From Caulobacterales bacterium (GTDB taxonomy: Bacteria > Pseudomonadota > Alphaproteobacteria > Caulobacterales > Aquidulcibacteraceae), in contig JBEVJO010000340.1 of NCBI GenBank assembly GCA_040510175.1, positions 1 through 38,171 on the forward strand: a DNA stretch of 38,171 nt. The letters are read 5' to 3'. Below, piece after piece: positions 4,700 through 38,171 of the stretch. The first letter of the stretch is position 1. The number at the start of each line of letters is the position of its first letter. Under the pieces are notes generated by a model. That model was not told the origin of the DNA and ran no database searches. It worked only from the letters and a program-made list of their open reading frames with translations. The translations under genes were made by a program, and so were the position numbers.

Positions 4700-4731
4700 A
4701 ATAGTTTCGCACAATGGGTAGACTGCGCACT

Positions 4732-4747
4732 GCGCTGTAAACAGCGC
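4732..4747. promoter_or_regulatory. 16-bp palindrome GCGCTGT-AA-ACAGCGC (candidate operator)
   Basis: Perfect 7-bp arms with a 2-nt centre, flanked by a GCGCACT direct repeat (4725-4731 and 4744-4750). It lies about 350 bp upstream of the exoP-like start at 5100. Confidence 0.3.
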
Positions 4748-10964: not shown

Positions 10965-11223
10965 TTTCGAGTTTCAGGTTTCTGCTGATCCGTTCGCGGC
11001 GGCCGAACGCAGCGTGAAGTTGGGCCGCCGAGCTTGGACAAGACGTAAACCGCCCAGGATGGGATTGGCAATTGCGTCGATTGGTTTACGGACTTGCCGC
11101 TCGTTCAATGTGCAAAGCTCTCCTTTAGCGCGAGTTCGAGGCGCTCCAAGCCTGCGCCGGATTTCGGACGCGTCCGCGCTCGCTTATGGTGCGGGTCGAT
11201 TCGAATCCCTTTTCAGGCGCCCC

Positions 11224-12012
11224 ATGTCTTTGTCTCCCTGGAAGCTGCCCGTTCTGAAGCAATTGCGGCAGTGCGGCTGGCTGAACGAAAAACTGCGGCT
11301 GGGGTTCGGACCGTACTGGGGCATGTTCCCTTCCCGCGGTGAAGCGGAACAGTTTCTCAGGCCCGATCGTCGCGCTTCTCCGGACGATGATGAATTGGCG
11401 GAGATGAACGCCGACATATTTTCAACGGTGCATCCGTTCGATTGGCCGATGCTGTTTTTCCTTGGGCAAATGCAAAAACGTGAGCGTTTAAAAACCATCA
11501 CGGATTTTGGCGGCCATGTTGGCGTCAAGTATCACGCTTACAAAACGCAAATGGCCTTTCCGCCGGATTTCCTCTGGCAGGTGGTCGATATTCCAGCGGT
11601 ATGCAAAGCAGGCCGGCGCCGCCAGGGAGACGACAAGACCAATCTGGTCTATCATGAAAACCTAAAGGACACGGCGCCATGCGATGTTCTGATCTGCTCC
11701 GGCGTTGTGCAGTATTTGGACCACAGTCTCAGCGATGTGATCAAGCGGCTCCCCCAGAGAGCCGGCATGGTTCTTCTCAACAAGGTCGCGGTAACTGAAG
11801 GCCCGGCCTTTTATACGCTCGAATCGCTAGGCTTCGTCCGCGTTCCCTATCTCGTCACGACCATCCCGGCGCTTGATGCGATCCGTGAAGAGCACGGTTA
11901 CAGACTCTTGGCGCGATGGGAAATTCCTGACCGCGTCTTCACAATCGCCCATCAGCGCGGACATCGAAATATGAGGATGATCGGTGAAGCCTGGTCCGCC
12001 GATCCTGTCTGA
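11224..12012 (+). CDS. Putative SAM-dependent methyltransferase-like protein (resembles the TIGR04325-type family from memory)
   Basis: The ORF is open from 10945, but that start overlaps the divergent GT2 start. ATG at 11224 (or 11059) is more plausible. YWGMFPSRGEAEQF followed by a glycine-rich ITDFGGHVGVKY and WQVVDIPAV matches my recollection of that family. The assignment is tentative. Confidence 0.5.
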   Translation: MSLSPWKLPVLKQLRQCGWLNEKLRLGFGPYWGMFPSRGEAEQFLRPDRRASPDDDELAEMNADIFSTVHPFDWPMLFFLGQMQKRERLKTITDFGGHVGVKYHAYKTQMAFPPDFLWQVVDIPAVCKAGRRRQGDDKTNLVYHENLKDTAPCDVLICSGVVQYLDHSLSDVIKRLPQRAGMVLLNKVAVTEGPAFYTLESLGFVRVPYLVTTIPALDAIREEHGYRLLARWEIPDRVFTIAHQRGHRNMRMIGEAWSADPV

Positions 12013-12020
12013 AGTTTTTG

Positions 12021-12953
12021 CTACGCGCCTTGGACGAAACGCTTATGAAGATGGACCGCTTTGCGCCGGATGGGCGTCGCGACCCGCATCGTTGCGCCTT
12101 TGAGTGCGTCCCGCAGCGGTTGAGATCCGGGTTGCGGCGGCTTTAGGCCGGCGGAGCGCAAATAGGAATTGAACGCGTTGACGCGCGCATGTTGACGGCC
12201 CCGCGGCGTTTCAAAGACGAGGGAATACGATACCGATCGTCCTGGCCCCGTCTCCACCCAATGCGGCGAATTTTGGGGCTGATGCAGGCCGAGCCCCGGA
12301 GATAGTTTAAACGTTTCGCGCGCTGAGTCCGGCAGGCGCTCAAGATCGACGTTGCACACCGAGACTTCGCCGCGGGCATAAAATCGCTCGAGCTCCGGCG
12401 CCGGAACCACTGAAGGAGAATAAGTATGAAACTGCTTCTCCCCTTCAACTTGCAGGAAAAAATTGACCTCTGGATCGAAATGCACGGGCGTTATCGCGCG
12501 CGCTGAAGAGATGAAAAGCGCAGCGCGCGCGCGAAACACCGGGCCTTCGATCCCGCACATCGTTCTGATTTCTTCCAGCAGAGAATCTCTCAGCGCCCGA
12601 AAACCCTCGTCGTGGTTTTCCAGAAGTTTGAGCAGAATACGCACGGGTTGCTTCGGCAATCTTACGAGCGCTTCTTTCGGTGTGCACATACCATGCGCGA
12701 CATCGAAAAATGACGTCGAGGCGCTGGGCGCTGGCGTTGAAACAAAATAGTCCCGGCCCTCGGCCGTATACAGGTCGGCGAGGCGCGTGATGTAGTCGTC
12801 GCTAAACAAGTCCAGCTTTGCGAGTTGATGCTCGATTCCAAACGCGGCTTTATCGAACGCGCGCGCGGGAAGGCCCGGCTTTATCACCGCATCCCCTGCG
12901 CTACCGCTAGGGATCGCACGAAGCATCTTCGGCGTCTGCAGGCTATTCAGCAC
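12021..12953 (-). CDS. JmjC/cupin-type Fe(II)/2-oxoglutarate oxygenase-like protein (paralogue B)
   Basis: 310-aa ORF. HxD...H facial-triad candidates in ITPVHFDPEVNFFLQVEGEK and SPHWVETG. It is alignable with the upstream paralogue (YHFDLEPSFLLQVSGQK ... GPHWVQNG). Its start overlaps the upstream stop by 7 nt. Confidence 0.7.
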   Translation of the reverse strand: MLNSLQTPKMLRAIPSGSAGDAVIKPGLPARAFDKAAFGIEHQLAKLDLFSDDYITRLADLYTAEGRDYFVSTPAPSASTSFFDVAHGMCTPKEALVRLPKQPVRILLKLLENHDEGFRALRDSLLEEIRTMCGIEGPVFRARAALFISSARAITPVHFDPEVNFFLQVEGEKQFHTYSPSVVPAPELERFYARGEVSVCNVDLERLPDSARETFKLSPGLGLHQPQNSPHWVETGPGRSVSYSLVFETPRGRQHARVNAFNSYLRSAGLKPPQPGSQPLRDALKGATMRVATPIRRKAVHLHKRFVQGA

Positions 12954-13939
12954 CCGAGCCCCCTATTGTCGCCTACATCAGCGCGGACCGGTTTCCAGAC
13001 GGGATACAGTTCCGCGGGATTGCGCTTTGCCGTGATCGACTGACCGACGCGGCGCACCTGTCGTGCGAGCGACCAGAGTCCGGCTTTCGTGTCGTCTAGC
13101 CATGGTTTGGCGCCGGGGGGCGTCGGCTTGAGCCCGAGCTTACGGAGACGGCTATTGACCGCGTACGCATGTTGCAGCCGCTGATGCGACGACCGCATGT
13201 CGAAATTCACGTTCACGGATATCGAAACGTCAGCTCCGTTCTGAACCCAATGCGGACCGGTGCTTGGAAAGTGCACGCCAAGGCCCGGCGTTAAATCATA
13301 CTGCGCGGCGTCGTGTTGGCGCTCCGGCTTGTAAATCGCGGCGCTGTGTTCGCCCGCGCAATAGGTTTCGAGTTCCTGCTCCGTGGTCAAAGTGCGATCG
13401 CCATTGGGCCACGCGAACACAGTCTTCTGTCCCGACACCTGCAGCAGAAAGCTGGGTTCAAGGTCGAAATGATACGCGGTCTTTCGGTTCGGCGAATTGA
13501 TAAAGATCAGACATTCGCCAATAGACACGTCGTCTCTGAACGACTGTGGTGACGCTTCGAATACTTCCTGCAAGAGATCGCGTAAGACGGGGCCAAATAC
13601 GGCGTCTTGCTCAACATGCTTCAGGACGACGACGCTGTTGGAGGTGCTGATCCCCTCAATCGTTTCGCGCAGTGTTAGCCGCTTTGCCGGCTGCGCGTTC
13701 CAGCCGTCGGTAATATCAATCGTGCCATTCTGCCAATATTTGAAACCATCGTAATCGGGAATGCGCTCGGCCAGAGCAACGAGCCCATCGATCGTACAGA
13801 TCGGCTGTTTCGCGAGATTATGCCGAAAGCCGAAATGCCGCCTGTTGACGCCCAGAAATTGCGGCCGATCGCTTTGTGCAATGAGCGCGGAATCCTGTGC
13901 TGGCTTGTCCGGTCTGCTTTGATTGTCCATGGGAGTCAT
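12947..13939 (-). CDS. JmjC/cupin-type Fe(II)/2-oxoglutarate oxygenase-like protein (paralogue A)
   Basis: The ORF is open to 14107. ATG at 13939 is preceded by GAGGA and lies 16 nt after the upstream stop, so it is preferred. Motifs YHFDLE and GPHWVQNG, then a double-stranded beta-helix-like region. Confidence 0.7.
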   Translation of the reverse strand: MTPMDNQSRPDKPAQDSALIAQSDRPQFLGVNRRHFGFRHNLAKQPICTIDGLVALAERIPDYDGFKYWQNGTIDITDGWNAQPAKRLTLRETIEGISTSNSVVVLKHVEQDAVFGPVLRDLLQEVFEASPQSFRDDVSIGECLIFINSPNRKTAYHFDLEPSFLLQVSGQKTVFAWPNGDRTLTTEQELETYCAGEHSAAIYKPERQHDAAQYDLTPGLGVHFPSTGPHWVQNGADVSISVNVNFDMRSSHQRLQHAYAVNSRLRKLGLKPTPPGAKPWLDDTKAGLWSLARQVRRVGQSITAKRNPAELYPVWKPVRADVGDNRGLGC

Positions 13940-13955
13940 GGCGCCATCCTCGTCT

Positions 13956-15266
13956 TCACTGCACGGATTGAACTGTTTCGTCAGCGCGCACGCCCTTTGG
14001 GAGCATCCCGATCTGCCGGAATCCCTGAACGCCCTCGGTCCTCTCCGGGTCGGGAATTTGCGCCTCTGGAAGGTGGGCGAGATTCCTGTCGAAAAAGCCG
14101 CGAACATAGGTGTGAACGATTTCGCTGACCTTGACCGGGTCGACCCGGAGCCAGCTTTTGTTCAGATGAGGTTCGAAGGCGTCATCACGAAAGTTTTCGT
14201 GGATGGCTTTTCTCACGCGAACGCCCACGCTACCTGGCCGCGCCGCCAATTGTGCATGCATGTCTATATCCCGGTCGTTGATCATGGCCCAATAGCGCAC
14301 GTCCGGGATCGGGGAGGCTAAGTCCTCTCTCGTTGGCATAGTGAAATCGCTGATGATGAACATATAGGGTGCGCTGAAACCACGGCTCAGCGCCTCGCCG
14401 AACAGACTGCCATCGATATTCACCACGGCCACGATGCGCGAATCCATCGTGGCGGCTTCGGACACAGATGATCCTCCAAACGAATACCCCAGCACCCCCA
14501 CGCGATCGAAGTCGATCGCGCCGGCCGGCGACGAACTTCCATCGGCGCCCACACATGAAGCGAGGCGATCCAGGGCGTTGAGCGCTTTTTTGGCTTGGCG
14601 CTGCACACGCTCGTCGCTCAGTGCAATTGTGCGTTCATAGGCCGGTCCAGAGGTAAAATTCCAATCCTCCAGTCGAACGGCTGCGTCGTGAGCGCTCTCG
14701 TTTGGGGGATTATCGTTGGCGATGTCGTCCAGCGCCAAGACCAAATAGCCGTACGACGCCAGCATTCCGAGGAGGCGCGTATTGTCATCCCGCGTGCTTT
14801 TGAGGTGCGGGATATAAAGGATCAATTTCCGCGGCGTGCTGGTCTGGGCGATCGGAAGATTGCGGAGGCATGTCCGGGCTGTTTCCGTCGCCGCGGTCGC
14901 CGCTGACGATCCGCTGGCGGACGGAAACCAAATTTCCGCGCGGATATCTTCGCCGCCCGCCGGATCCAGGGATGGCAGCGCGAGGCTCGCATGCGCCGCC
15001 TTGAACGGTCCTACGGCCATGCGGGTTTGCGACCGGCGCACGGATTCGGCGAGCGCCCATGGCGTCAGCAAGGCACCGGCCAATGCGAATCCGCCGATAA
15101 GAAGCAGCGCGGTGGGCAGGATGCGCGGACCGGGCAAACTCCGGACTGTGAGCGTGGCGAGCAAGATCATCGCCAGCGCAAAGATCGCCGCATAAATCCA
15201 GCCGATCCGTCCGCTTAAGGCCACGAGAATGCTTTCGAGTGCGATGCGCACGCTACCCTGTCCCAC
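13956..15266 (-). CDS. Membrane-tethered alpha/beta-fold serine hydrolase (PAF-acetylhydrolase / lipase-like)
   Basis: 436-aa ORF with a GTG start sharing 1 nt with the TAG stop of the NRPS gene. Two N-terminal TM helices are followed by a basic stretch (ESVRRSQTR). Nucleophile elbow GYSFGGSS. C-terminal KAIHENFRDD resembles the His motif of PAF-AH-type hydrolases. Confidence 0.75.
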   Translation of the reverse strand: MGQGSVRIALESILVALSGRIGWIYAAIFALAMILLATLTVRSLPGPRILPTALLLIGGFALAGALLTPWALAESVRRSQTRMAVGPFKAAHASLALPSLDPAGGEDIRAEIWFPSASGSSAATAATETARTCLRNLPIAQTSTPRKLILYIPHLKSTRDDNTRLLGMLASYGYLVLALDDIANDNPPNESAHDAAVRLEDWNFTSGPAYERTIALSDERVQRQAKKALNALDRLASCVGADGSSSPAGAIDFDRVGVLGYSFGGSSVSEAATMDSRIVAVVNIDGSLFGEALSRGFSAPYMFIISDFTMPTREDLASPIPDVRYWAMINDRDIDMHAQLAARPGSVGVRVRKAIHENFRDDAFEPHLNKSWLRVDPVKVSEIVHTYVRGFFDRNLAHLPEAQIPDPERTEGVQGFRQIGMLPKGVRADETVQSVQ

Positions 15267-18200
15267 TATCTCAGCGCCTTAACGCCGTCGATCGCCTCAA
15301 GCATCGGGCGGAGCGTCTCAGCAATGATGTCCGCGCCCTTGCCGATAAATATCTCCGCATGCCAGCCTGGCGCGCGCGCCACCACCAGTTCGCCGGTGAC
15401 ATGACGCCGCCATCCCAGATCTGGATCAAGGAACTCCGCGCCGACTTCGTCGCTGAGAAAAACCGCGACGTCGCCATCATAGCGGCGGGGAACGTAATGC
15501 CGGCGCGCTTCCTCAAGCATCGGCTGGAACCACAGATTGCTCCACGCTTCTCCGAGATCGCTTTGCTTTAGCCAGCCGAGGCGAATGAGCAGAGGCGTCA
15601 ATCCCGCGCGATTAAAAATTTGATATGAACCAAGAACATAAGAAAGGGAGATTTCACCCTTCGCGACGCGCGCGATGTGGCGTCCCGCCACGCGCAATCT
15701 GTAGATCATGCTGTGCAGGAAACGGCGGCCTCTCGGCGCCGCGCGAAGATAATTTGGCGAGGTCGCGTCGGCTTGGATGATAAGAGGGACATCCTCCCCG
15801 GCGCGACGCAATTGTTGCGCGACTTCCAAAGCGATGGCGCCCGAAACGCAAAGGCCCAACAATATGTAGGGCCCCGATGGCCGCACGCGGCGGATGGCGT
15901 CGACAAAGCTTGATGCGATGGTTTCGAGCGTCTGAAAAGCGAGTTCTCGCGGCTGCTCGGGATCATACATCTGAATCCCGATAAAGGGCCTGTCGACCCC
16001 GATGCGCTGCGCCAAATTGTAATAGATGACGGTATTGTTGATCGCGATGATCGGCGTTTTGTCGCCGAAAGGTTGAATTTCAAAAATCTCCGCGTTCGCC
16101 CCGCCCTCAGGAAGCGGGTCGCTCGCCGGCGCTGTATGCTGCTCACGAGAAGCGATGGGCGAATGCGTCACAGCGTGACGGGCAAAGGCGCGCAGCGTTG
16201 GCTCGCGAAAAAGAACGGCCACATTGGGCGCCCAACCGAGTTGTTTTTTGACGTCCGCCAACATGCGCAAAGCGAGAAGAGAATATCCGCCCAGCTCGAA
16301 AAAATTGTCTTCTGGATTTACGTCCGCCACGCGCAGTAACGACGCCCAGATACCGGCGATCGTTTTCTCGGCGTTCGCGTGTTGCGGTTCAGGCCTTTGG
16401 GCCGGAGATGTCGTTGCCGCCGGCGTCGCCGGCCTTGTCGGCTGGCGATTCGGCCAGGCGATTGCGCCGTCAGCGCTTTTGGGAAGGCGCAGATAAACGC
16501 TTATATCGATCTGTGCGTCGGCGGTCGCGGCGTTGTCCCGAAGCGCATTCAAAAGAGCGTCGGGCAAACGCTCAAGAGAAATGGTCACGTCCGGATGCGG
16601 CGTCACCATCGCCCGATAGAATTCCGCGCCGGTCAGCCCGGGTTGCAGGCGCACAACGACGTCTTCCACCTGTCCGGAAGCGCGCAGGACGTCAGCGATC
16701 AGCGCTGCGGCAGGATCATCCAGCGGGTTTGAAATCTGTGCGGCTGATCGATCGCGTTCCGTGGTGAAAGTCGACAGTCGGACGGCGGGGTCAATAATTG
16801 CGTTTTCGATCACACGCCGCCAAAGGCTGAGAAGCTGCTCAATCGTGGAAGTCGCATACAAAGACGTGTTGTACTCGATATGGAGCCGCCACTCGTCTTG
16901 AACGCCGACGAGCTCGAACGAGAGGTCATAAAGCGCGTCAGTAGAGGTCGCCGGGGCGGCCGCCACAAACTCCAGATCGCCAAAACGCGCGGCTTCCAGG
17001 AAGGTCCGGCGGACAACAACATTGACCGCGATCAAAGGGGTTCGCGACGGGTCGCGTGGAGGTTTCAAGAGTTCGACCAGGTGATCGAATGGCATGTCCT
17101 GATGCGCCAGCGCCGCGGTGACGCGTTCGTTGGCGTCGAAAACGCAATCGGCAAGGGAACCGGTCGCGCTTGGCCGCAGACGCAAAACCAGATTGTTGAT
17201 GAAGACGCCGATCAAGGCCTCTTCGTCCACTTCGCCGCGCGCCGCAGCCTGCGTCCCAATAACGATGTCGTTTTCTCGGGTAAACGCTTGCAGAGCGGCG
17301 CCCACCGTGGCGCATCCGAAAGCGAAGGTCGTAACCCCGAGCGTTTGCGCCGCCGCATCGAGTCTGGCCGCCAAAGCGCCTGAGAGTTTATCGGAGGCAA
17401 TTGCGCTCTGCGTGGTTCGGCTGGCGGCGCGAGGATGATCGGGCGAAACCTCGAAGTAAGGCGCATCGGCAAGGTGACTGAGCCAATAGTCCCGGCTCTC
17501 CTCGAACGCCGCGCTTTTCAGGCGCGCCTGCTGAGCGACTGCAAAATCCGCATACTGCAGATGCAGCGGCGGCAGGTCCGGCGTCCGGCCTTCTCTTAGA
17601 GTGTGCAGCAAACTGCCCAGCTCGGTTGCAAAGACGCGGATCGACCATCCGTCAAATACGCTCTGATGAAAAACGACGATCAGATGACTAATCGAGGCCG
17701 ATGTGCGCACCAGCATAGCGCGCATCAAAGGCGGAACGGTCAGATCAAAGGGGGCCTGTGCAAAGGCGCGCCGCAATTTGTGAATTTCAGTCTGCAGAGC
17801 GTCCGCCGGCAAATGGGAAAGATCAACTCTGTCGAGCTTGAACTCTACAGCGTCGGCAATCTGCTGAGCCGGACCCGTTTCTTGCGCAATGATGCGGGTC
17901 CGCAATATCTCGTGCCGTGAGATGATAATTTTAAGTGCGGTTTCCAGGTGCTTGCTAGCAAGCGGGCCGCGCAGTTCCCATGCGATCGGGATGTTCAGCG
18001 CGGGCGATCCGGGATTTAGCTGATCCAGGAACCAGCATCTAACTTGGGGTGGGGTACAGGGAAACAATGCAGCATCGTCAGCGCGCACGGGTTTTATGTC
18101 GGGATCAAGCGCATGCAGACGCATTTGCGGCGCTTCAACGAAGGACTCGAACGCTGCACGCCAAGCCGCAAGCAAAGTCAGCGCGGTGTCTTCCGAGAAT

Positions 18201-25400: not shown

Positions 25401-27423
25401 CGCCCGGCGCCGCCTGCATGAAGCTGGCGCGCGCCGCGACAAAGCTCACTGCTTCTTCGAAAGACATGACGCCGGCGAGCGTAGCGGCGACAAGCTCGCC
25501 GACGCTGTGACCAATCATGCTGTCTGGCTGCACGCCACGCGACATCCAGAGTTTGGCCAACGCGTATTGCGTTAGAAAAAGTGCGGGCTGCGCGAACACC
25601 GTCGAGCGGATTTCATGGGACTCATTCTCGTCGGCCGACGTTTTGCGATAGAGCAGGTCGCGGATGTCCCGCTGCAATATGCGGGCGAGTTCGTTAGCGC
25701 CGCGATCAATCACGTCGCGAAAGACCGGTTCGCTTTTGTAAAGCGCACTTCCCATGCCGGGATATTGAGCGCCCTGTCCGGGAAACATGAATACGACGTG
25801 GGGGCGTTTCGCCGGAATGCGCTTCAAAGCCTTCGCATCGAGACTGTTGAGCTTCGTGAGCGCCTCTTCCCGATCGGCGGCGACAATTGTGGCGCGCACA
25901 TCGAAATCGCGGCGGCCCTCTTGAAGCGTCCGCGCCGTTGCATCCAGTTGGAGCGCCAGATCTTGCTCAACAGAAGTTTTCAGGCGAGCCGCCGCCGCCA
26001 GAACTGCAGTTTCCGTGCGCGCTGAAATCGGAAAGATAAGCGGCGTCTTGTCTTGCGCTGGATGAGCGGCGCGCGCGGGCGCCTCTTCCAGCACAACGTG
26101 AACATTTGTGCCGCCGACGCCAAAAGAACTGACGCCGGCGCGCCGGGGGCTTCTACCGCGTGGCCATGGCGTCGCATCTGTGGATATGCGGAATGGACTC
26201 TTATCCAGATCGATGTTCGGATTTGGCGACTTGAATTCCGTCATCGCCGGAATTTTTTCGTGATGCAGGCTCAGCGCGGTCTTGATCAGGCCGGTGACGC
26301 CGGCTGCCGCGTCGAGGTGGCCGACATTCGCCTTCGCTGATCCAAGGACGCAGAAATTTCTCGCGCCGTTGCAATCGCCAAACGCGCGCTTCAGACCCTC
26401 GAATTCAATTGGATCGCCAAGCGGTGTGGCCGTGCCATGCAGCTCAACATAGCCGATGGACGCCGCATCAACGCTGGCGGCTCCGTGCGCGGCCTGAATA
26501 ACGCGCGCCTGCCCCTCGGCGCTTGGCGCGGTGAAGCCAACCTTGGCGCTGCCGTCATTGTTGACCGCCGTTCCCCGAATGACTGCAAAGATGGGATCGC
26601 CATCGGCGATCGCGTCTTCGAGACGCTTCAAAAGCACAACGCCAGCGCCGCTGCCGAAAACGGTGCCGGATGCTTCGGCGTCAAACGGGCGGCACGCTCC
26701 ATCACGCGAGGCGATGCCGCCTTCCTGATAGAGATAACCGCGCTTCTGCGGAAACGTAATTGAAACGCCGCCGGCCAGCGCGGCGTCGCATTGATAGAGC
26801 ATCAGGCTTTGACATGCCTGGGCAACCGCGAGCAGCGACGTTGAACACGCGCTCTGAACCGTCAGCGCCGGTCCGCGCAAATTGAGCTTGTAGGCGACTC
26901 GCGTGGCCAGCGCGTCCGGCAGCGCCCCAAGCAGTGTTGGCAAGCCGCCGATCTGGTAGTCGCTGGTGAAGCTTGCGATTGCGTTTCGGTCGGCACAGAC
27001 ATTGTTGAGGAAATAGGTGGGCATGCTGGCGCCGGCGAACACGCCAATCTCGCCCTTGTACCGCTCCGGTATGATCCCCGCAGATTCCAGCGCTTCCCAG
27101 GCGATTTCCAGAAAGATCCGGTGTTGCGGATCCATGAGTTCCGCTTCGCGCGCGTACACGCCAAAGAATTCTGCATCAAACTTATCGGCGTCTTCAAGAA
27201 TCGGCCGCGCCGCGACGAAGTTGGACTGTGATCGCGTTTCGACGTCGAAATTGTCCTCGAGTTCGGAGAGGCCCAGGCGCGAAATGGAAACGGTCTTGTC
27301 GAGAAGATTGCGCCAAAACGCGTTCAGATTCTCGGCGCCAGGGAATCGTCCCGCCATGCCGACGATGGCGATGGCGTCCGGCGGATAATCTCCGGCAAAT
27401 GAAAAGCTGCTGTCGGGCATCAT
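19423..27423 (-). CDS. Hybrid PKS-NRPS megasynthase: KS-AT-ACP-aminotransferase-C-A-PCP
   Basis: 2666-aa uninterrupted ORF. An ATGA overlap with the upstream A-PCP gene lies at 27420-27423. All core motifs are present; see the domain sub-features. Confidence 0.95.
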   Translation of the reverse strand: MMPDSSFSFAGDYPPDAIAIVGMAGRFPGAENLNAFWRNLLDKTVSISRLGLSELEDNFDVETRSQSNFVAARPILEDADKFDAEFFGVYAREAELMDPQHRIFLEIAWEALESAGIIPERYKGEIGVFAGASMPTYFLNNVCADRNAIASFTSDYQIGGLPTLLGALPDALATRVAYKLNLRGPALTVQSACSTSLLAVAQACQSLMLYQCDAALAGGVSITFPQKRGYLYQEGGIASRDGACRPFDAEASGTVFGSGAGVVLLKRLEDAIADGDPIFAVIRGTAVNNDGSAKVGFTAPSAEGQARVIQAAHGAASVDAASIGYVELHGTATPLGDPIEFEGLKRAFGDCNGARNFCVLGSAKANVGHLDAAAGVTGLIKTALSLHHEKIPAMTEFKSPNPNIDLDKSPFRISTDATPWPRGRSPRRAGVSSFGVGGTNVHVVLEEAPARAAHPAQDKTPLIFPISARTETAVLAAAARLKTSVEQDLALQLDATARTLQEGRRDFDVRATIVAADREEALTKLNSLDAKALKRIPAKRPHVVFMFPGQGAQYPGMGSALYKSEPVFRDVIDRGANELARILQRDIRDLLYRKTSADENESHEIRSTVFAQPALFLTQYALAKLWMSRGVQPDSMIGHSVGELVAATLAGVMSFEEAVSFVAARASFMQAAPGGAMLAVRTSESALKALLDEGLDIAAINAPSLCVVAGDFPRIAAFERALNQRDIQHRRLHTSHAFHSSMMDDVVAALAIHANGMKLHAPNIPFVSCVTGDWATQDLLTSKSYWTLHCREPVRFADALARLVADTRPVLLEVGPGRTLSTFAMQGLSKASYDCVIASLPEFSNASDEDRVFAEATARLWTSGAPVRWPASSAPRLSSLPTYPFERRSYWIEAPKTSSSAAAKSPEPRDPATLQQPMPPADLSMPEMSESAPPSPATKSGQRTTRLCADIARIIEGLSGEPIADTEWTTPYLEFGFDSLFLGQVAQQIQKHFKIKITFRQLLGDYPDIASLADFLDAAMPADPVAQIEAPIAQVSAAPVVAAPAASAPLAPIAAGGDMLAIFQAQLSAMQNLMDRQLDALGGRRESPSAQSQQAQPAAVAPAPAAISAIPAAAAPNADGQPSRFRMFDKNARTETLTPAQKSFVDALVARVSEQMPKSKSYAAEHRPHLADPRSVSGFRAEWKNAIFPIVASRAKGSTIWDLDGNSYIDLVNGYGQTAFGHSPDFVVEALQEQLTKGFPIGPQSDAAGDVARRIAKMVGLERVTFCNTGSEAVMAAMRVARAVSGRETVVVFSNDYHGQFDEVLVKGARRGAPPRALPISAGIPASAVSNMVVLGYGESESLSWIRDNAETLAAIIVEPVQSRHPELRPVEFLKELRAITAANGAALVFDEVVTGFRTHPGGMQALWGIKADMATYGKVIGGGMPIGILAGTPAYMDALDGGAWQFGDDSVPEVAPIFFAGTFVRHPLVVAAAQAVLTHLETQGAALQQGLEARTRQLVDRLNALFADRGVKTRAETFSSWFMLNFGAEDALGSLFYLYARSLGVNIQEGFPCFITTAHSDADFQRIETVFGEALDALQSVGILGAHSIDASLAPAAEIAALITAPVADLPWQAPLTEMQKEVWLAAQMGDTASCAFNESFRLELDGLLNVRALEDAVNDLVARHDALRAYFGETGEQMFVRPQLELELGSVDVSASGGEDALADILADDARTPFDLVNGPLVRAFVVRLGDNAHVLCFSAHHIVFDGWSAGVVISELAACYDARLAGLAAGLPPAPQYRAYALAQAQQTADTRSAQSFWAGQYLDIPALPDLPADRARPQVRTYDGATSTAFIDEILTRKIKKAGAQRGCTPFATLFTAFQILIGRLANHSDVVVAVPTAGQSLEEDAGLVGHCVNLLPVRVGFDPAAPVADHLEKVKQALLRAFDHQSYTFGTLVRDLKVPRDINRLPLTEVQFNFEKFGGDLKLENLTARVRPNPKAASNFDLFFNVAESSEGLRIDCDFNGDIFDAATIERWMGHYRTILESFVEDLTQPIQSLNLLSRDERSWMVETLNHTQTEFTDLPLHRLFEVQARRTPHAIAAIAGAQAFTYADLDARANQFARYLARRVPGSGKRVAIALDRSLDLLASMLGVLKAGHAYVPLDIDHPPERLRHVLATAQVSALVCHNDRALPIAPDASIVVSLDRDRALIDSEDKTGAAVALGEGAIAYVIFTSGSTGEPKGVEVPHRALTNFLASMARKPGCNANDCIVAVTTVSFDIAALELFLPLVLGARVVIANRDDVRSGFGLLDLINKHRATMLQATPSLWRILLEAGFKPSRSLKMLCGGEPLPRDLADSLTSAPDAELWNMYGPTETTIWSSVSRVGPGLITIGEPIANTQLHILDSNDQLCPLGAPGLLYIGGEGLAKGYFGRRDLTDAAFRFISLNGAAPRRLYNTGDIARRLPDGRIQHLGRADQQIKLRGFRIELEEIETLLRAASGVSEAAVALRDGATGEARLVGYYVPAPGAAPATSDLALHLRSQLPDYMCPTAWVALARMPMTGNGKLDRKALPNPNLENEPARDRVLPVNSMEETLLEIWSDVLGVREISTTDSLFALGADSIHLFRIAARMAERGLPLKAKDVLQNPSIAALAAIASAARSDQRTVADAPSLAAFRSGGRRNRPT
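19504..19710 (-). other. Peptidyl carrier protein domain
   Basis: LLEIWSDVLGVREISTTDSLFALGADSIHLFRI, with Ser2602. Confidence 0.85.
19768..21228 (-). other. Adenylation domain, predicted Gly-activating
   Basis: A3 YVIFTSGSTGEPKGV, A5 NMYGPTETT, A7 YNTGDIARR, A8 GRADQQIKLRGFRIELEEIE, A10 NGKLDRKAL. Specificity residues aligned by eye to GrsA numbering give DILQLGMIWK. Confidence 0.8.
21304..22590 (-). other. Condensation domain (canonical HHIVFDG)
   Basis: PLTEMQKEVWLAAQ. nt 22177-22197 translate to HHIVFDG, verified from the nucleotides. Confidence 0.9.
22729..24006 (-). other. In-line class-III PLP-dependent aminotransferase domain (GSA-aminomutase-like, MycA/ItuA-type AMT)
   Basis: SYIDLVNGYGQTAFGHSP, FCNTGSEAVMAAMRVAR, LVFDEVVTGFR and the PLP-lysine motif ATYGKVIGGGMPIG (Lys1419). 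Confidence 0.85.
24370..24594 (-). other. Acyl carrier protein domain
   Basis: YLEFGFDSLFLGQVAQQI, with Ser979. Confidence 0.85.
24904..25797 (-). other. Acyltransferase domain, malonyl-CoA-type signature
   Basis: FMFPGQGAQYPGMG, GHSVGE (Ser640) and the HAFH motif (aa 736-739), which is generally associated with malonyl rather than methylmalonyl (YASH) specificity. Confidence 0.85.
26086..27378 (-). other. Ketosynthase domain (catalytically competent)
   Basis: IAIVGMAGRFPGA; active-site TVQSACSTSLLAV (Cys193, codon 26845-26847); ELHGTATPLGDPIE; KANVGHLDAAAG. Confidence 0.9.
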
Positions 27424-29420
27424 TTACCCCTTGCGAGGCGCGCGCGCGCGGCCGCGTCTCTCGCACGATCGGCGCGGGTGCGGGCTATGCTGGAGTCAGC
27501 TTCTTGAGACTGAGCGCCGCGCAAATATGCCGCCAGATCAGAAATGCTGGCGTGCTCAAACATCGCAGCAAAAGGAAAATCCCGGTCCAAAACGCGTTGG
27601 GTTTCGGCGTGCGCCTGCATAAGCTGCAAAGAGCGTCCGCCGAGGTCGAAAAAATTCAGGTCAAGGCGCCGGATCGAAACACCAAGGACGCTTTCCCAAA
27701 TCGCCACGAGTTTGCTCTCGAGGTCGCTTGAAGGAGTCGTCTCTAAAGATGAACTTTGGCAATCACCAGCAACTAAAAACTCGGCCAATGCCGCGCGATC
27801 GACCTTCCCGTTGGCGGTCAATGGGAGTGCGGATATTGCCGAAATAGAGGCTGGTATCATGTGAGCGGGAAGAGTCTCATGCAGCCGGGGCAGGAGGTTT
27901 TGTTCCCAATGCGCGGGCGGGCCCGCAAGGCGGCTGGTCACGAACGCAAACAATTGTTTCCCTGCGGCGCCTCTTTCGATGGCGATAACCGCGCTATCGG
28001 CAACGCGCTCGTCTGCACGCAGCGCTGCTTCAATTTCGCCGGGTTCCACACGCTTGCCGCCGATTTTTACCTGGCCATCGAGCCGCCCCAGAAACTCGAT
28101 AACGCCGTCTGGCCTGCGCCGAACAATGTCACCCGTCAGATAGACGCGCTGGTTGATCGGCGCCGGAAGCGTCACAAAGCGCGCGGCTGTCAATTCGGGA
28201 AGGTTATGGTAGCCAAGCGCCAGTCCGGCGCCGCCCGCCGCGAGCTCGCCGCTTGCGCCGTCGAGAACGGGCAGGCGATCTTCATCAAGGACGAAGACTT
28301 CCGTGCCTGCGATAGCGCGGCCGATCGGCGCCGCCTCCAATGGGCCGCGCATAAATGTGTGGCAGCAGGTGAAGGTGGTGTTTTCCGTCGGTCCATAGCC
28401 GTTGATGACGCGACACGCGGGGAAGCGCCGCAATACGCGGTCGACATGCGATGGCGACAGAACATCGCCCCCAGCCAGCAATTGTCGCAACGGACTCAGG
28501 GACTCGATCGCGTGATCGACGACAAGATGGAAGAGGCCTGCCGTCAGCCAGGCGATGGTGACTTTGTGGCCATCGATGATTGCCCCGATTTCCGTGACAG
28601 AAGGACGGGCATTGTTCAAAATTGCGAGCGCGCCGCCATTCAACAGTGCGCCCCAAATTTCAAACGTGCTTGCATCAAACGCCAACGGCGAGGCGTGCAA
28701 AATAACGTCTCGGCTCGAAAGCTCACAGAAATCTTGTTGGAGCACCAAACGCTCGACGGCGCGATGCGGCACGACAACGCCCTTGGGCAGGCCGGTCGAT
28801 CCCGACGTGTACATGATATACAGCGGCTGATCAGGGGCCGCGAAAAAAGCTGGCGGATTAAAAGCGAGGTCTGGGCTGACTTGAAGCACGCGCGCCAGCG
28901 TCAATTGCGCAACTGATTCTACTCTAACACATGCGGGCGGCGCATCGTCAGTCAGTAGAAGAGTGGCTGCGGCATCGCGGAGCATGTGGGCGATCTGCGT
29001 CGCGGGATATGCGGGATCGATGGGCACGTAGATCGCGCCGATTTTGACGATGCCCAAGATCGCCGCGATTGTTTCTTGCGATCGCGCTGCGATCAAAGCG
29101 ACGCGATCGCCCGGCTGAACACCGTGCTGGCGAAGATTTGTCGCGGCCCGGTCCGACGCTAAATCCAGGTCCCGATAGGTCCAACTGGGTCTGCCGCGTT
29201 GAACAAGTGCGGGAGCGTAAGCGTGTTCCGCGACGGTCACCCGAAAGGCGTAAGCCAAACCGCCGCGCCCATCATAGGTTGCGCTCTCCGGTGGCAAACT
29301 CTCTTCTGTGAAACGCGCCCGTCGCATAAAAAACACCTCATGCAACAGGAACTTGCGACCCGTCGCGAGGAACAGCCTATCGTTCAGGTAGAGTACACGC
29401 GAGGCGGCATCGCTTTGCAA
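27420..29420 (-). CDS. Stand-alone NRPS loading protein: A-PCP, predicted Val-activating
   Basis: 666-aa ORF (alternative ATG at 29327). A3 YIMYTSGSTGLPKGV, A5 NGYGPTENT, A7 YLTGDIVRR, A10 LPLTANGKVDRAAL. PCP motif FFDLGGRSLQL (Ser597). Specificity residues read as DAFWLGGTFK. Confidence 0.9.
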   Translation of the reverse strand: MQSDAASRVLYLNDRLFLATGRKFLLHEVFFMRRARFTEESLPPESATYDGRGGLAYAFRVTVAEHAYAPALVQRGRPSWTYRDLDLASDRAATNLRQHGVQPGDRVALIAARSQETIAAILGIVKIGAIYVPIDPAYPATQIAHMLRDAAATLLLTDDAPPACVRVESVAQLTLARVLQVSPDLAFNPPAFFAAPDQPLYIMYTSGSTGLPKGVVVPHRAVERLVLQQDFCELSSRDVILHASPLAFDASTFEIWGALLNGGALAILNNARPSVTEIGAIIDGHKVTIAWLTAGLFHLVVDHAIESLSPLRQLLAGGDVLSPSHVDRVLRRFPACRVINGYGPTENTTFTCCHTFMRGPLEAAPIGRAIAGTEVFVLDEDRLPVLDGASGELAAGGAGLALGYHNLPELTAARFVTLPAPINQRVYLTGDIVRRRPDGVIEFLGRLDGQVKIGGKRVEPGEIEAALRADERVADSAVIAIERGAAGKQLFAFVTSRLAGPPAHWEQNLLPRLHETLPAHMIPASISAISALPLTANGKVDRAALAEFLVAGDCQSSSLETTPSSDLESKLVAIWESVLGVSIRRLDLNFFDLGGRSLQLMQAHAETQRVLDRDFPFAAMFEHASISDLAAYLRGAQSQEADSSIARTRADRARDAAARARLARGK
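27516..27725 (-). other. Carrier protein domain of the loading protein
   Basis: LVAIWESVLGVSIRRLDLNFFDLGGRSLQLMQ. Confidence 0.85.
27786..29258 (-). other. Adenylation domain of the loading protein
   Basis: Motifs A1-A10 as above; FDASTFE, IAWLTAG, LLAGGD, NGYGP and TENTTF supply the code residues. Confidence 0.85.
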
Positions 29421-29518
29421 GCGAACGATCCGCGACGCTTTCGCGCTGCGCGAGAAGAGCCGCCCGTCAACGAGAAAGAATGCAAGAGTTTCAGAGCGTA
29501 GAGCAGAAAGCGAAGGCG

Positions 29519-30652
29519 CTAACGCACCGGCGGCGTTGCATCAAGAAGTGTGATCAATCGTTTCGCGACATTGAGCCATTTAAACTGATCGGCATGTTTC
29601 AGTCCGGCCTCAATTCGGTTCCGTCTGCGGTCCTGATCGACGGCCAGAGAGAGGATGCCTTCGACCCAGGCGTCGGGCGAATCCGCATCCGCGTACATAA
29701 CGGCATCGCCACATACTTCCGGTAGAGCGCCGCAGGGCGCGCAGATTACCGGACATCCTACGGCCATCGCTTCCAACGGCGGTAAGCCAAACCCCTCCGT
29801 GGTGGACGGAAAGGCGAGACAAAGGGCGCTTTCCATGAGGGCCCGAAGCTCTCCATCGCTCACCTTGCCCGCGAACACGACATTTGAGGGAATGGAGGCG
29901 CCGATTGCGGCCTCAAACGCTTCGCGGTTAGCCGCGCCGAACAGAACCAGAGTTTTTTCGATTAACCGGGGATCCGCAAACGCCTTAATCAGAACGCGGA
30001 CGTTTTTATGAGGCTGCGTGTTCGCCCGACCCAAAACGAAGCTCCCAGGCGCGAGATTGAGCGCTTTTAAGGTTTTCTGGTCCGCCGGCATGGAAAGGAT
30101 GTGGTCGGCGCCGTTGTGCAGAACGGTTGTTTTTTCCAGCCGCGCCACTCTGGCGTTCGCCAATTGCGTCCTTGAATAATCCGAGACTGCGAGGATGCGG
30201 GTATGCCGTTTGCCGAGAAGCGGCTGAACGGTCTTATACCAGAGGCGAAAGGGCTTCGAGTATGATTCAGGGGAGAGGTAAACCTGGGCGTCATGGATCA
30301 TCGTTACGGCATTTGTCGCGATGACGGGTCCCAGATTGCAGAAGCCGACAATCATCGCGCCGTTGCGCATGGCGCGATACGGCAAATCGAATTGCTCCCA
30401 CGGTATGTGGGTGAACACGCCGCCTTGGCGAAACGGAATATGCGCAAGGCTCAGCGTGTGATGCAGCCGGCGCGGGGCGAAAAGTTCGATGTCCCAACGC
30501 TGCCGGATTTCTGAGTCGAGACCAAGCAACTCGTCGAGCGCCAGGATGAGCTGCTCGGCAACCCGATGCACGCCCGTCGGCGGCGCCATCAGGAACTTCC
30601 CATTCAAGATAATTTTTCGCCTTTGGGGCGATATTTCGAGCTGTGCGCTCAT
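29519..30652 (-). CDS. Glycosyltransferase, GT4 (group 1) family
   Basis: 377-aa ORF. E-x7-E motif EGFGLPPLE followed by AVGCPVICAPCGALPEV. A GGAGG lies about 11 nt upstream of the ATG. Confidence 0.85.
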   Translation of the reverse strand: MSAQLEISPQRRKIILNGKFLMAPPTGVHRVAEQLILALDELLGLDSEIRQRWDIELFAPRRLHHTLSLAHIPFRQGGVFTHIPWEQFDLPYRAMRNGAMIVGFCNLGPVIATNAVTMIHDAQVYLSPESYSKPFRLWYKTVQPLLGKRHTRILAVSDYSRTQLANARVARLEKTTVLHNGADHILSMPADQKTLKALNLAPGSFVLGRANTQPHKNVRVLIKAFADPRLIEKTLVLFGAANREAFEAAIGASIPSNVVFAGKVSDGELRALMESALCLAFPSTTEGFGLPPLEAMAVGCPVICAPCGALPEVCGDAVMYADADSPDAWVEGILSLAVDQDRRRNRIEAGLKHADQFKWLNVAKRLITLLDATPPVR

Positions 30653-30707
30653 CCCGGAATGGCCTCCAGGATCAATGTCCGGCTGAGAACCAAACCGGCC
30701 AAGCGCT

Positions 30708-31646
30708 TCACTTCAGATCCAGTATGTTACGCGGGTGGAGACGGCCGCGCATAAGATCCGAAATGGCTTGGAGGTTGCCGCGCAGACGTCCTTTCCGGTC
30801 GCACCAAGGCTCCGGCTTCAGGGATTTGATCATATTGGCGGCCACGTTGCGGATCATTAGCGGATACGCATGACGGATTGAAACCGTCCGCTTACGGCGC
30901 ATAAAAATGGGGTTTGCAATTTGGGCGTACCCCATCGGCTTGCCCGGCGACCGCGCACTTTTAACGCCTAGATGCACGCCTATCAGTGCGTCCGTCCAAT
31001 AAAGGCGCCCGCGACGGCCCAGTTGCATCGTGAAATCGATGTCCTCCTGCCAGGCGTAACCCGGCAAGGTCTCGTCAAAGGTCAAGCCGTCGGCGAGACT
31101 GCGGCGCATCACCATGTTGCAGCCGTAAAGGCCGCCGATCCGTCGCAACTTTTCAGCGCCCGCCACGCGCGACCCCGCTGCGCCCAAATAGGCGGCGGCC
31201 TCCTGGAAGGTGAAGCCGGGGCCGCCAATGCCGTCCGCGATAACGTGGCCCGTGAGGCCGGCGATATCGGCGCGGGCTTGAATGAGGCGTTCGGCCGCTT
31301 CGAGATAGTCAGGCGCCGGGGCGAAATCGTCGTCGAAATAGATGATGATGCCGGAGTCTGGATCGAGCGCCCGCATGGCCGTGTTGCGCTGAGCCGGCAA
31401 ACCTTTCGGGCCAAAGACAACCTTGATCGGAAGCGCCGGATCGACCGGGGGCACGTCAGCCGGGCTTGGAGCGGATATGATGATTTCATCCGCCAGCCGG
31501 GTCTGGTTTGTGAGAAAGCTGAGCGCTTCGCCGACGATGTCGGCGCGCCCGGCGGTCGCGTAAACAACCGATAGTTTCACGCCCGCCCCCAGTGGCTTGT
31601 CTCGACTGACATTCTTCAATTCCATCAATCGCCGAAGCCCTGTCAA
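30708..31646 (-). CDS. Glycosyltransferase, GT2 family; first gene of the long minus-strand operon
   Basis: 312-aa ORF. GT-A N-terminal beta-alpha-beta (LSVVYATAGRADIV), GLPAQRN, DxD in IIYFDDDFAP, YGCNMVMRR and WQEDIDF. Confidence 0.85.
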   Translation of the reverse strand: MTGLRRLMELKNVSRDKPLGAGVKLSVVYATAGRADIVGEALSFLTNQTRLADEIIISAPSPADVPPVDPALPIKVVFGPKGLPAQRNTAMRALDPDSGIIIYFDDDFAPAPDYLEAAERLIQARADIAGLTGHVIADGIGGPGFTFQEAAAYLGAAGSRVAGAEKLRRIGGLYGCNMVMRRSLADGLTFDETLPGYAWQEDIDFTMQLGRRGRLYWTDALIGVHLGVKSARSPGKPMGYAQIANPIFMRRKRTVSIRHAYPLMIRNVAANMIKSLKPEPWCDRKGRLRGNLQAISDLMRGRLHPRNILDLK

Positions 31647-31894
31647 TCGCTAGCATCGCTGCCGGTGAATCTTATGACGTTTGCCTTCTGTGCGACATAA
31701 GAACGCACGATGACTGGCGGGCGCGGGCATTCAAGAACGTGGGATTAAGTCACCTGCACAGTAATGCCGCCTTGAACGGGATGTGTGGACGCGGGATGGT
31801 CCTGCCCTTGCCAGACCGCTTTCCGGACCGCCATGACAGGCCGCATGATCAGACTTCTCCGCCCGAGCACGGCAGCAGTAGCGGCGCGTCACGC
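31647..31894. promoter_or_regulatory. Divergent promoter region between the GT2/NRPS-PKS operon (-) and the flippase gene (+); contains inverted repeat TCTTATG-N19-CATAAGA (31669-31701)
   Basis: 248-bp non-coding gap if the flippase starts at 31895. It has 7-bp perfect arms with a 19-nt spacer, the same arm and spacer geometry as the repeat at 4667-4699. No sigma-factor consensus could be assigned by eye. Confidence 0.4.
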
Positions 31895-34892: not shown

Positions 34893-34947
34893 TCGTGGCC
34901 TGACGAAATCGGCGGCCGCCATCGACAACGCTAGAAGGAGGCTGAAA

Positions 34948-37997: not shown

Positions 37998-38171
37998 ATG
38001 ATTTCCAACCTTCATGTTTTGCGCGCCGTCGCCGCCTTGGGGGTAGTGTGGTATCACACCCATCCGATTTTGAATTCTGCGTTTGACGTAGATTTTTGGA
38101 CGGATTTCGGCGATGCCGGGGTCGACATCTTCTTTGTCATCTCCGGCTTCATCATGTTTCACTCCAACAAG
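37998..38171 (+). CDS. 5' part of an acyltransferase-3 family (OafA/ExoZ-like O-acyltransferase) gene, truncated by the window edge
   Basis: This ORF is not in the ORF track because it has no stop. The ATG at 37998 is preceded by AAGGGGGAGG. My own translation gives MISNLHVLRAVAALGVVWYHTHPILNSAFDVDFWTDFGDAGVDIFFVISGFIMFHSNK. The LRAVAAL..V..H and GVDIFFVISGF motifs are typical of acyltransferase_3. Confidence 0.75.
   Translation, partial: MISNLHVLRAVAALGVVWYHTHPILNSAFDVDFWTDFGDAGVDIFFVISGFIMFHSNK

Follow-up and report, generated by a model that had tools for sequence, protein, structure and literature searches.

What is a hybrid nonribosomal peptide synthetase-polyketide synthase (NRPS-PKS) assembly line for, when its genes lie inside an exopolysaccharide (EPS) locus? 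The question is posed by a metagenomic contig of a Caulobacterales bacterium (JBEVJO010000340.1), analyzed here over its complete length of 38,171 bp (the window). A first-pass annotation had described eight consecutive minus-strand genes, three of them synthetases, set among glycan-assembly genes of the Wzx/Wzy type, and had proposed that the thiotemplate product is made for the glycan pathway. We assigned families in the window with Pfam, applied to open reading frames (ORFs) of at least 150 amino acids (aa), and with NCBIfam. A scan with one genome per species found at least 513 relatives; the locus comparisons below use the best 80 of these at the species level, and taxa are given by the names in the sequence records of the loci. 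The arrangement is widespread and not unique to this contig.

The assembly line and its predicted product

All eight genes, running from 31646 to 12021, were reproduced in the ORF table, and their domain orders were borne out by Pfam and NCBIfam. The first synthetase is a loading protein with an adenylation (A) and a peptidyl carrier protein (PCP, or T) domain (27420-29420, minus strand; Pfam, NCBIfam, and motifs). Its A domain satisfies the amino-acid adenylation model TIGR01733 (384 bits) and carries the specificity code DAFWLGGTFK, whereas the A domain of the second synthetase carries DILQLGMIWK; the codes were read via an LgrA alignment anchor and GrsA numbering, and going by reference codes we take the first to denote Val and the second Gly. 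A fatty-acyl ligase of the kind found in iturin-type lipopeptides was considered for the loading domain and rejected on the strength of the TIGR01733 match and the Val code.

The second synthetase (19423-27423, minus strand; Pfam and motifs) is the hybrid, composed of ketosynthase (KS), malonyl-type acyltransferase (AT), acyl carrier protein (ACP), aminotransferase (AMT), condensation (C), A, and PCP domains. In the KS domain, C193, H329 (HGT), and N366-x-G-H369 are present and invariant in the homologue alignment; the AT domain has GHSVG at 638 and the malonyl-type motif HAFH at 736, and Ser979 is the carrier serine of the ACP. Between the ACP and the C domain lies a class III aminotransferase domain (PF00202, 4.6e-51, aa 1185-1509), whose lysine (Y1417-G-K1419) is invariant in homologues, and the elongating C domain has an intact catalytic motif, HHIVFDG, at 1743. 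GxDS motifs with their serines are present in the carrier domains, as is Lys517 in the A domains. The catalytic residues of the KS, AT, ACP, AMT, elongating C, both A, and carrier domains are intact and invariant in homologues. No record matched the hybrid synthetase in an exact-sequence lookup, the sequence being carried by this contig only; the closest relative among the matches listed, L001, is 63% identical.

Read in this order, the line would load Val in the cytoplasm, extend it with one malonyl unit, convert the beta-keto group to an amine, and add Gly, for a predicted 3,4-diamino-5-methylhexanoyl-Gly thioester, which would be small and cationic. The architecture A-T / KS-AT-ACP-AMT-C-A-T / C-(A, C, or none)-T-thioesterase (TE) is near-invariant in the best 80 of the relatives. 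In almost all of these loci the A2 code is that of Gly, and the A1 code is mostly that of Val and sometimes Thr-like or other. Because the architecture recurs with these codes, the block is best described as specifying a conserved product class and not as a decaying relic. The loading protein is C-A-T instead of A-T in Beijerinckia indica (L002:6374-9733), where the A1 code also deviates (DLKNVGSDVK), and in one Vulcanimicrobiaceae metagenome-assembled genome (MAG; L018); with a C domain acting on the starter, the product would be expected to occur there in an N-acylated (lipo-) form.

In one rival reading the product is a primer or anchor, an acceptor on which the glycan is built up or to which the Wzy_C/WaaL-like protein ligates it. 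Such a role has been proposed for rkp-1 of Sinorhizobium, whose PKS would supply the K-antigen with a lipophilic carrier or anchor (PMC3557214). The C domain before A1 in Beijerinckia and in the one MAG could N-acylate the starter, and the Wzy-like protein of the glycan pathway is unusually conserved beside the block, with homologues in 21 NRPS loci. On the other hand, the window and most loci have neither a starter C domain nor a fatty-acyl ligase, which would leave the product small, polar, and without a lipid, and a priming transferase for a polyprenyl carrier is present. We regard a primer or anchor as very improbable.

The junctions within the run were rechecked, and the spacings first given hold for all but one. 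The two glycosyltransferase (GT) genes at its head, GT2b and GT4b, are 55 bp apart; the three synthetase genes are joined by ATGA overlaps at 27420-27423 and 19423-19426; the terminal synthetase and hydrolase genes overlap by 1 nt at 15266; and the two JmjC genes at the end of the run overlap by 7 nt (12947-12953). A gap of 16 bp separates the hydrolase gene from the first JmjC gene (ORF 12947-14107), given a start at ATG 13939, which has GAGGA upstream and was preferred over 14107. The spacing that did not hold is the 98 bp between GT4b and the A-PCP gene: since A-PCP homologues are 630-638 aa long and ATG 29327, preceded by GAGG, yields 635 aa, this ATG is probably the true start and the gap 191 bp. 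A promoter and terminator scan of 12000-31900 gave counts at or below shuffle expectation, and with matches at chance level the scan is silent on operon structure.

Glycan neighbors of the block

The first-pass annotation had suggested a search for the NRPS-PKS block beside wzx, wzy, and exoP genes in other genomes; it was positive for most related loci, in several phyla. Alphaproteobacterial carriers are Rhizobium, Labrys, Ancylobacter, Nitratireductor, Methylocella, Rhodobacteraceae, and one Sphingomonadales MAG, and further carriers are Paraburkholderia, Nevskia, Steroidobacteraceae, Acidobacteriota, Verrucomicrobiota, and MAGs labeled Vulcanimicrobiaceae and Candidatus Binataceae; the homologues in Phenylobacterium and Beijerinckia indica were found by protein search and contig look-ups. 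Because tblastn with window proteins missed divergent GT and Wzx genes, glycan neighbors were instead found by iterated hidden Markov models (HMMs) built from window proteins and run on all ORFs of the loci, and they were counted in the 56 species-level loci with complete 10-kb flanks. At least one gene for Wzx, a Wzy-like protein, a priming transferase, or a polysaccharide co-polymerase lies within 10 kb in 40 of the 56 loci (Wzx in 32, co-polymerase in 20, Wzy-like protein in 17, and priming transferase in 16), and any glycan gene in 47. With few Wzx genes per genome, a given 20-kb stretch would be expected to contain Wzx in no more than a few percent of cases. The loci vary widely in gene order and strand, and in many the block is embedded, flanked by glycan genes to the left and right (for example L039, L047, L057, L071, L009, and L090). 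Judged by these comparisons, the link between block and glycan genes is probably not accidental.

The composition of individual loci illustrates this variety. By Pfam, the Beijerinckia indica context reads GT4, GT4, Wzy_C, GT2, synthetases, hydrolase, and 4'-phosphopantetheinyl transferase (PPTase); that of Paraburkholderia phymatum reads Crp, PPTase, synthetases, Wzx, AT3, GT4, GT2, and Wzy-like protein; and a Phenylobacterium MAG likewise shows the block with glycan genes. Rhizobium lusitanum has, as extras, LuxR and Crp regulators, a pyruvyl transferase, GH16, a GINT1_N-like protein, a DegT sugar aminotransferase, a GMC oxidoreductase, a methyltransferase, Wzx, and a priming transferase. 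Several conserved partners in the Rhizobium-type and Phenylobacterium loci (L006:911-9634 and 22431-27992; L090:20855-23685) are absent from the window. They are the GINT1_N-like protein (530-545 aa, right after the TE gene) in 13 loci, the DegT aminotransferase and GMC oxidoreductase in 14-15, and the polysaccharide pyruvyl transferase in 12, as well as a DUF418 membrane protein in L090 only and Crp/LuxR regulators and a curlin-repeat protein near the block in L006. The DegT and GMC proteins of the Rhizobium-type loci could supply an amino-sugar acceptor. We found no description of this cluster family in open-access papers and preprints, and subscription journals may hold one; papers on megapolipeptin and on B. 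rhizoxinica, considered as candidates, proved unrelated.

The glycan genes of the window have counterparts of 40-58% identity at NRPS loci of Rhodobacterales, Sphingomonadales, Rhizobiales, and Paraburkholderia. The closest homologues of one of them, GT4a (63-76%), are found in EPS loci with no NRPS within 10 kb, namely L086 and L087 (both from metagenomes), L088 (Sphingomonas profundi), and L089 (Phenylobacterium). These four NRPS-free loci also hold counterparts of the priming transferase (54-60%), the ExoP-like protein (58%), the Wzy-like protein (48%), and the glycanase (47%), and none of the PPTase, methyltransferase, JmjC, or hydrolase genes. GT2b (30708-31646, minus strand; Pfam; counterparts 40-46%) and GT4b (29519-30652, minus strand; Pfam; 47-50% counterparts at Paraburkholderia NRPS loci) had at first been counted as part of the synthetase block. 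They are co-directional with the synthetases and yet not specific to them, with counterparts of 40-49% in the NRPS-free loci (GT4b 43-49%, GT2b 40-44%). Since chassis counterparts occur without an NRPS, we read the block as an accessory module (about 9193-29420) that comprises the PPTase, the methyltransferase, two oxygenases, the hydrolase, and three synthetases. The chassis around it is a common alphaproteobacterial EPS set of priming transferase, GT4a, GT4b, GT2b, Wzy-like protein, ExoP-like protein, Wzx, glycanase, and AT3 acyltransferase. A different accessory set, made up of an MBOAT protein, an 80-aa ORF, and an FkbH_N-domain protein, occupies L086:19242-21170 and L087:15682-17631, with GLF, GMC-oxidoreductase, and GFO/IDH-FAD proteins near it; it could represent another carrier-protein-based acylation of a similar polymer.

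The GC content at third codon positions (GC3) is 0.63-0.69 in the synthetases versus 0.60-0.72 in the glycan genes, and synonymous codon usage in the block and in the glycan flanks correlates at r = 0.975. A recent horizontal insertion of the block has left no sign: GC3 and codon usage match the flanks, no tRNA genes were found in the window, and its repeats are paralogous domain motifs only. The first-pass annotation would have given up its proposal had the same EPS locus been found without the block, together with a compositional signal of insertion; the former is seen in L086-L089, and the latter is absent, with no break in codon usage or GC3. Its statement that the window holds no MbtH-like gene and no mobile-element scars stands, as searches of the window gave no MbtH motif and no IS-like repeats.

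These results bear on the possibility that two independent pathways share the locus. The synthetases would then make a free metabolite, and co-location would come from shared regulation, from a cell-surface or biofilm island, or from chance insertion in a variable locus, EPS and O-antigen loci being hot spots of gene gain. The same EPS chassis occurs without the block, so the glycan pathway can do without it; in 9 of the 56 full-flank loci the 10-kb flanks are free of glycan genes; and what lies upstream in L001 is housekeeping genes, its contig ending just past the hydrolase gene. Set against this are the persistence of the linkage across phyla despite heavy rearrangement, the lack of a compositional break, and a module-specific hydrolase that appears periplasmic (see below). 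Moreover, no other transporter and no regulator is among the Pfam matches to window ORFs of at least 150 aa, a survey that included no separate search aimed at either. We consider independent pathways unlikely.

The flanks themselves were seen by Pfam, NCBIfam, and a transmembrane (TM) scan to hold glycan-assembly genes on both sides with the PPTase among them, as first annotated. At the left end of the window, a co-polymerase-like protein with Wzz and P-loop AAA_31 domains, paralogous to the ExoP-like protein (186-2018, plus strand; Pfam, two TM segments, and a paralogy repeat), is followed by GT4a (2054-3196, minus strand; Pfam; 49-58% counterparts at NRPS loci). Next come the polyprenyl-phosphate sugar-1-phosphate (priming) transferase (3333-4121, minus strand; PF02397, Bac_transf, 5e-61), which has counterparts of up to 53% identity in 17 NRPS loci by tblastn, and the ExoP-like co-polymerase (Wzz-GNVR-AAA_31; 5100-7595, plus strand; Pfam; the 58% counterpart is in L086). 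The two Wzz and P-loop paralogues share a 57-nt segment that is 74% identical, and the shorter one has no GNVR match. Between the divergent priming-transferase and ExoP-like genes lies the longest noncoding gap of the window (4122-5099, 978 bp), which contains only short ORFs, outside the family search, and no Rfam match, and which may be a regulatory region; an Rfam search of the whole window gave no riboswitch and no other RNA family.

The Wzy-like/O-antigen-ligase-like membrane protein (7655-9130, minus strand; TM scan, about 11 TM segments) has no Pfam match in its window copy, and 3 of 14 family members match PF04932 (Wzy_C), a family that also covers WaaL-type ligases; its profile gave no match to solved structures in the PDB. 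It is followed by the Sfp-type PPTase, a gene of the NRPS module (9193-9936, plus strand; PF01648 and PF22624), which is present in 55 of 85 related loci, and by GT2a (9966-10964, minus strand; PF00535, 3e-30). To the right of the run, and divergent from it, is the Wzx flippase (Polysacc_synt_3; 31739-33388, plus strand; PF13440, 1e-43, about 10 TM segments). Beyond it lie GT4c (33750-34892, plus strand; Pfam), a putative glycanase with an N-terminal hydrophobic segment (34948-36024, plus strand; weak Glyco_hydro_cc match, 47-51% counterparts in L009 and L086), and GT4d (36042-37262, minus strand; Pfam; 42-43% counterparts at Paraburkholderia NRPS loci). A 223-aa ORF with no family match (34870-35541, minus strand) is antisense to the glycanase-like gene and is probably spurious, since that gene has its counterparts elsewhere. 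The O-acyltransferase of the flank (Acyl_transf_3; 37998-38171, plus strand; HMM match; translation MISNLHVLRAVAALGVVWYH...VDIFFVISGF) was found as its 5' part only; it is cut by the contig end, so the locus runs beyond the window. Of the components of a Wzx/Wzy locus, the window thus has a priming transferase, Wzx, and a co-polymerase, the last in two genes.

Chain hand-off, the hydrolase, and coupling to the glycan

If the product serves the glycan, it must leave the assembly line, and the terminal synthetase (15266-19426, minus strand; Pfam, motifs, family comparison, and PDB neighbors) does not have the C-A-PCP-TE order with a Ser TE that defines a canonical termination module. It has two C domains, both of which lack the second His of HHxxxDG (LHGMISDG, of the form HGxxxDG, and FHQSVFDG, of the form HQxxxDG). 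C2 and the PCP are separated by 120 residues, a remnant of the A-domain C-terminal subdomain (E = 0.002; window 16382-16729), and the L001 homologue has a weak AMP-binding_C match at the same position. In the nucleophile elbow of the TE, GLCVSG (GxCxSG), Cys replaces Ser, and Cys is the usual TE nucleophile in relatives.

The relatives contain four forms of this protein: C-A(Gly)-T-TE with HH; C-A-T-TE with HQ, in which the A domain is degenerate and has lost Lys517; C-T-TE, the commonest; and C-C-T-TE or C-TE. The terminal A domain is intact, with a Gly code, in L018, L035, L058, and L062. Nevskia/Steroidobacteraceae-type loci have degenerate terminal A codes with Asp235 or Lys517 lost (L008, L017, L020, L026, L031, L043, and L053; third synthetase, about 19.3-19.7 kb), only a subdomain remnant is left in the window and L001, and the domain is absent in most Rhizobiales. 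Broadly in parallel with the loss of the terminal A domain, HH in the C motif gives way to HQ or HS. Elongation looks as if it had been lost stepwise while the C-T-TE scaffold was kept, and we read the terminal module as specialized in chain hand-off and not in extension; the family would thus display stages of terminal A-domain decay in living lineages with the C-PCP-TE scaffold retained. The idea that one JmjC oxygenase is recruited per His-less C domain was dropped, as the numbers of extra C domains and of JmjC genes do not track across the family.

Downstream of the terminal synthetase is a membrane-anchored alpha/beta hydrolase (13956-15266, minus strand; TM scan, family alignment, and a profile match to 5YAE). 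The single sequence has a weak Pfam match to this fold, and the family profile matches the esterase 5YAE (1e-44) and platelet-activating-factor acetylhydrolases (PAF-AH; 1e-28), with Ser262, Asp285, and His356 invariant in the family alignment. The 5YAE structure is that of the R18 feruloyl esterase of Streptomyces cinnamoneus, which removes ester-bound acyl groups from sugars (PMC8228269). At its N terminus, the window protein has two TM segments joined by an Arg-rich loop. Because its homologues carry a signal peptide, a lipobox (LMGC), or one to four predicted TM segments, the first two of which point outward, the catalytic domain is probably in the periplasm. The family occurs in 32 loci, usually directly after the TE gene. 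A module-specific periplasmic esterase would place the product, or some conjugate of it, in the periplasm, and the sole membrane-translocation gene identified in the window is Wzx. Prodrug-type export and activation, with a MATE transporter and an S12 peptidase (ClbM/ClbP), was considered and set aside, since the enzyme that probably faces the periplasm here belongs to the alpha/beta hydrolases, in particular to their feruloyl-esterase/PAF-AH type.

Three further genes of the module encode candidate tailoring enzymes. Oxygenases A (12947-13939, minus strand; Pfam, family alignment, and profile matches) and B (12021-12953, minus strand; Pfam) have JmjC/Cupin_8 Pfam scores at or below the cutoff as single sequences. 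Their family profile matches FIH (2e-6) and JMJD5, and the His157/Asp159/His230 triad (HxD...H) and the 2-oxoglutarate-binding Lys172 are invariant in 21 sequences, which identifies both as true members of the Fe(II)/2-oxoglutarate oxygenase superfamily by sequence criteria. The third is a methyltransferase of the TIGR04325 (LIC12133-type) family (10945-12012, plus strand; NCBIfam, 141 bits versus a cutoff of 80), a gene that the first-pass annotation had not listed and whose family occurs in 24-26 NRPS loci. The TIGR04325 match begins at aa 124, and GT2a and the methyltransferase gene, which are divergent, have 20 nt in common at the starts of their longest ORFs (10945-10964); the true start is probably well downstream of 10945.

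These elements can be assembled into a route. The JmjC enzymes would probably hydroxylate the diamino-acyl-Gly unit and the methyltransferase would probably methylate it, and the unit would be passed to the nonelongating terminal protein, with its two His-less C domains, decayed A domain, PCP, and Cys thioesterase. The acceptor in offloading would be, instead of water, a hydroxyl or amine on a sugar of the undecaprenyl diphosphate (Und-PP)-linked repeat unit that the neighboring transferases make. The conjugate would cross the membrane via Wzx, the periplasmic feruloyl-esterase-like hydrolase would remodel, move, or remove the acyl group, and the Wzy-like and ExoP-like proteins would then polymerize and export the glycan. 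Our confidence in this complete scheme, from grafting on the Und-PP repeat unit to export, is evenly divided. Coupling to the Und-PP/Wzx route is nevertheless the best reading because the linkage persists across loci, chassis counterparts occur at NRPS loci, codon usage matches, and carenaemin offers a precedent, and also because the hydrolase is module specific, appears to face the periplasm, and has as its nearest structural relative an enzyme that cleaves acyl-sugar esters. The original proposal that the product is made for the glycan pathway is partly supported, by the linkage across phyla and the matching codon usage, and the remainder we infer.

Several observations weigh against this coupling. 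Apart from the 9 loci without glycan neighbors and the L001 context, both given above, no Poly_export/Wza match was found among window ORFs of at least 150 aa, in a contig that may end before such a gene. The window has no sugar aminotransferase, no MBOAT protein, and no recognizable peptidyl-to-sugar transferase, and the transfer step would have to be carried out by the atypical C and TE domains. In addition, glycan and secondary-metabolite loci can cluster for regulatory reasons.

The conjugate might also have a different fate. In the route proposed for carenaemin, the peptide would be placed on one lipid-linked oligosaccharide and flipped by Wzx, and the hydrolase would free a diffusible molecule. 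Carenaemins are diffusible and sugar-bearing and depend on a Wzy-pathway locus (PMC8313283). An esterase-like, probably periplasmic hydrolase would suit such a release, and some loci, such as P. phymatum L004, have Wzx, GTs, and a Wzy-like protein but no priming-transferase or co-polymerase gene within 10 kb. Yet the window and many other loci carry the full polymer set, in the window two co-polymerase/ExoP-like proteins, the Wzy-like protein, and the glycanase, and for a released molecule a co-polymerase would be superfluous. A released glyco-conjugate therefore takes only a small share of our confidence.

Returning to the coupling of block and polymer, we advance as a tentative generalization, one that we rate as somewhat doubtful, that the loci represent a widespread unrecognized class: surface polymers or glyco-conjugates that carry a cationic diamino-acyl-glycine on a Wzx/Wzy repeat unit, offloaded via His-less C domains, a Cys TE, and a periplasmic esterase-like enzyme. 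If so, peptide-polyketide-decorated and possibly zwitterionic exopolysaccharides would be made by rhizobia, Paraburkholderia, Acidobacteriota, and others. A genuine coupling would add NRPS-PKS chemistry to the acetyl, pyruvyl, succinyl, and single amino-acid substituents with which bacteria are known to decorate surface glycans, and would give a role to a conserved "orphan" NRPS-T1PKS cluster of soil and plant-associated bacteria, cultivable legume symbionts included. A diamine substituent would alter polymer charge and thereby biofilm formation, desiccation tolerance, metal binding, and host recognition, and the terminal module would exemplify a new form of offloading, with a carbohydrate as the acceptor.

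Comparison with known systems

The association of a thiotemplate line with a Wzx/Wzy pathway appears to be a combination of known kinds, widespread and with an uncharacterized product, and each part has its parallels. KS-AT-ACP-AMT followed directly by C-A-PCP, in which a beta-keto thioester is transaminated and the peptide continues, is also found in MycA of mycosubtilin/iturin and McyE of microcystin. The starter there is a fatty acid or long polyketide, and the products are macrocyclic peptides released as free toxins or antibiotics, whereas the window line would have an amino-acid starter, one further residue, and a nonelongating end. Cys-thioesterases occur in ObiF1 (obafluorin) and SulM (sulfazecin), and noncatalytic C-like X and I domains recruit oxygenases. 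The Cys TE of the window resembles the former, a resemblance only, and its His-less C-like domains, encoded beside stand-alone oxygenases, resemble the latter; unlike in ObiF1 and SulM, no beta-lactone or beta-lactam logic is evident in the window line.

Mycobacterial glycopeptidolipids likewise combine NRPSs with glycosyltransferases, methyltransferases, and acyltransferases to make a cell-surface glycoconjugate. They differ in being lipopeptides glycosylated sugar by sugar and exported by MmpL, with no polyprenyl-linked repeat unit, Wzx, Wzy, or co-polymerase; the loading domain of the window is an amino-acid A domain, and no MmpL/RND match is among its ORFs of at least 150 aa. In the rkp-1 system, the product of RkpA has been proposed as a lipophilic carrier or anchor for a capsule of the ABC-transporter (group 2-like) type. 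RkpA is a type I PKS in K-antigen capsule biosynthesis of Sinorhizobium and Rhizobium tropici (PMC3557214). Both systems thus place a type I PKS inside a surface-polysaccharide system that it is thought to serve, but RkpA has no NRPS modules and its system no Wzx/Wzy.

The Dlt system (DltA-D), which D-alanylates teichoic acids, offers a parallel in concept. In it, a carrier protein is charged by an adenylation domain, and the thioester-bound acyl group is finally ester-linked to a glycopolymer outside the cytoplasm. Common to both would be the transfer of a carrier-bound acyl group to a glycopolymer and a membrane-anchored, extracytoplasmic Ser-His-Asp esterase-like protein. Dlt transfers a single amino acid via an MBOAT protein, whereas the window unit would come from a multimodule NRPS-PKS and its glycan from a Wzx/Wzy pathway; an MBOAT homologue was found neither in the window nor in any NRPS locus but only in the NRPS-free L086.

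The closest match is carenaemin of Collimonas arenae Cal35, whose production needs two separate loci, one (cplA-K) encoding a PKS-NRPS with KS-AT-AMT and the other Wzy-dependent, and for which the authors propose that the peptide is attached to the lipid-linked repeat unit and then flipped (PMC8313283). Alike are the KS-AT-aminotransferase followed by C-A, the line's own PPTase, and the dependence on priming-transferase, GT, Wzx, and Wzy genes; the polysaccharide pyruvyl transferase of the carenaemin system recurs in the Rhizobium-type loci of the window family. The carenaemin line is larger and different, with three amino acids and a second PKS module, its structure and coupling step are unsolved, and cplA is likened here by architecture and not by homology. 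By this analogy, carenaemin is the nearest functional precedent, with two differences: its two loci lie far apart on the Collimonas chromosome while the window synthetases lie inside the glycan locus, and the window family is far more widespread.

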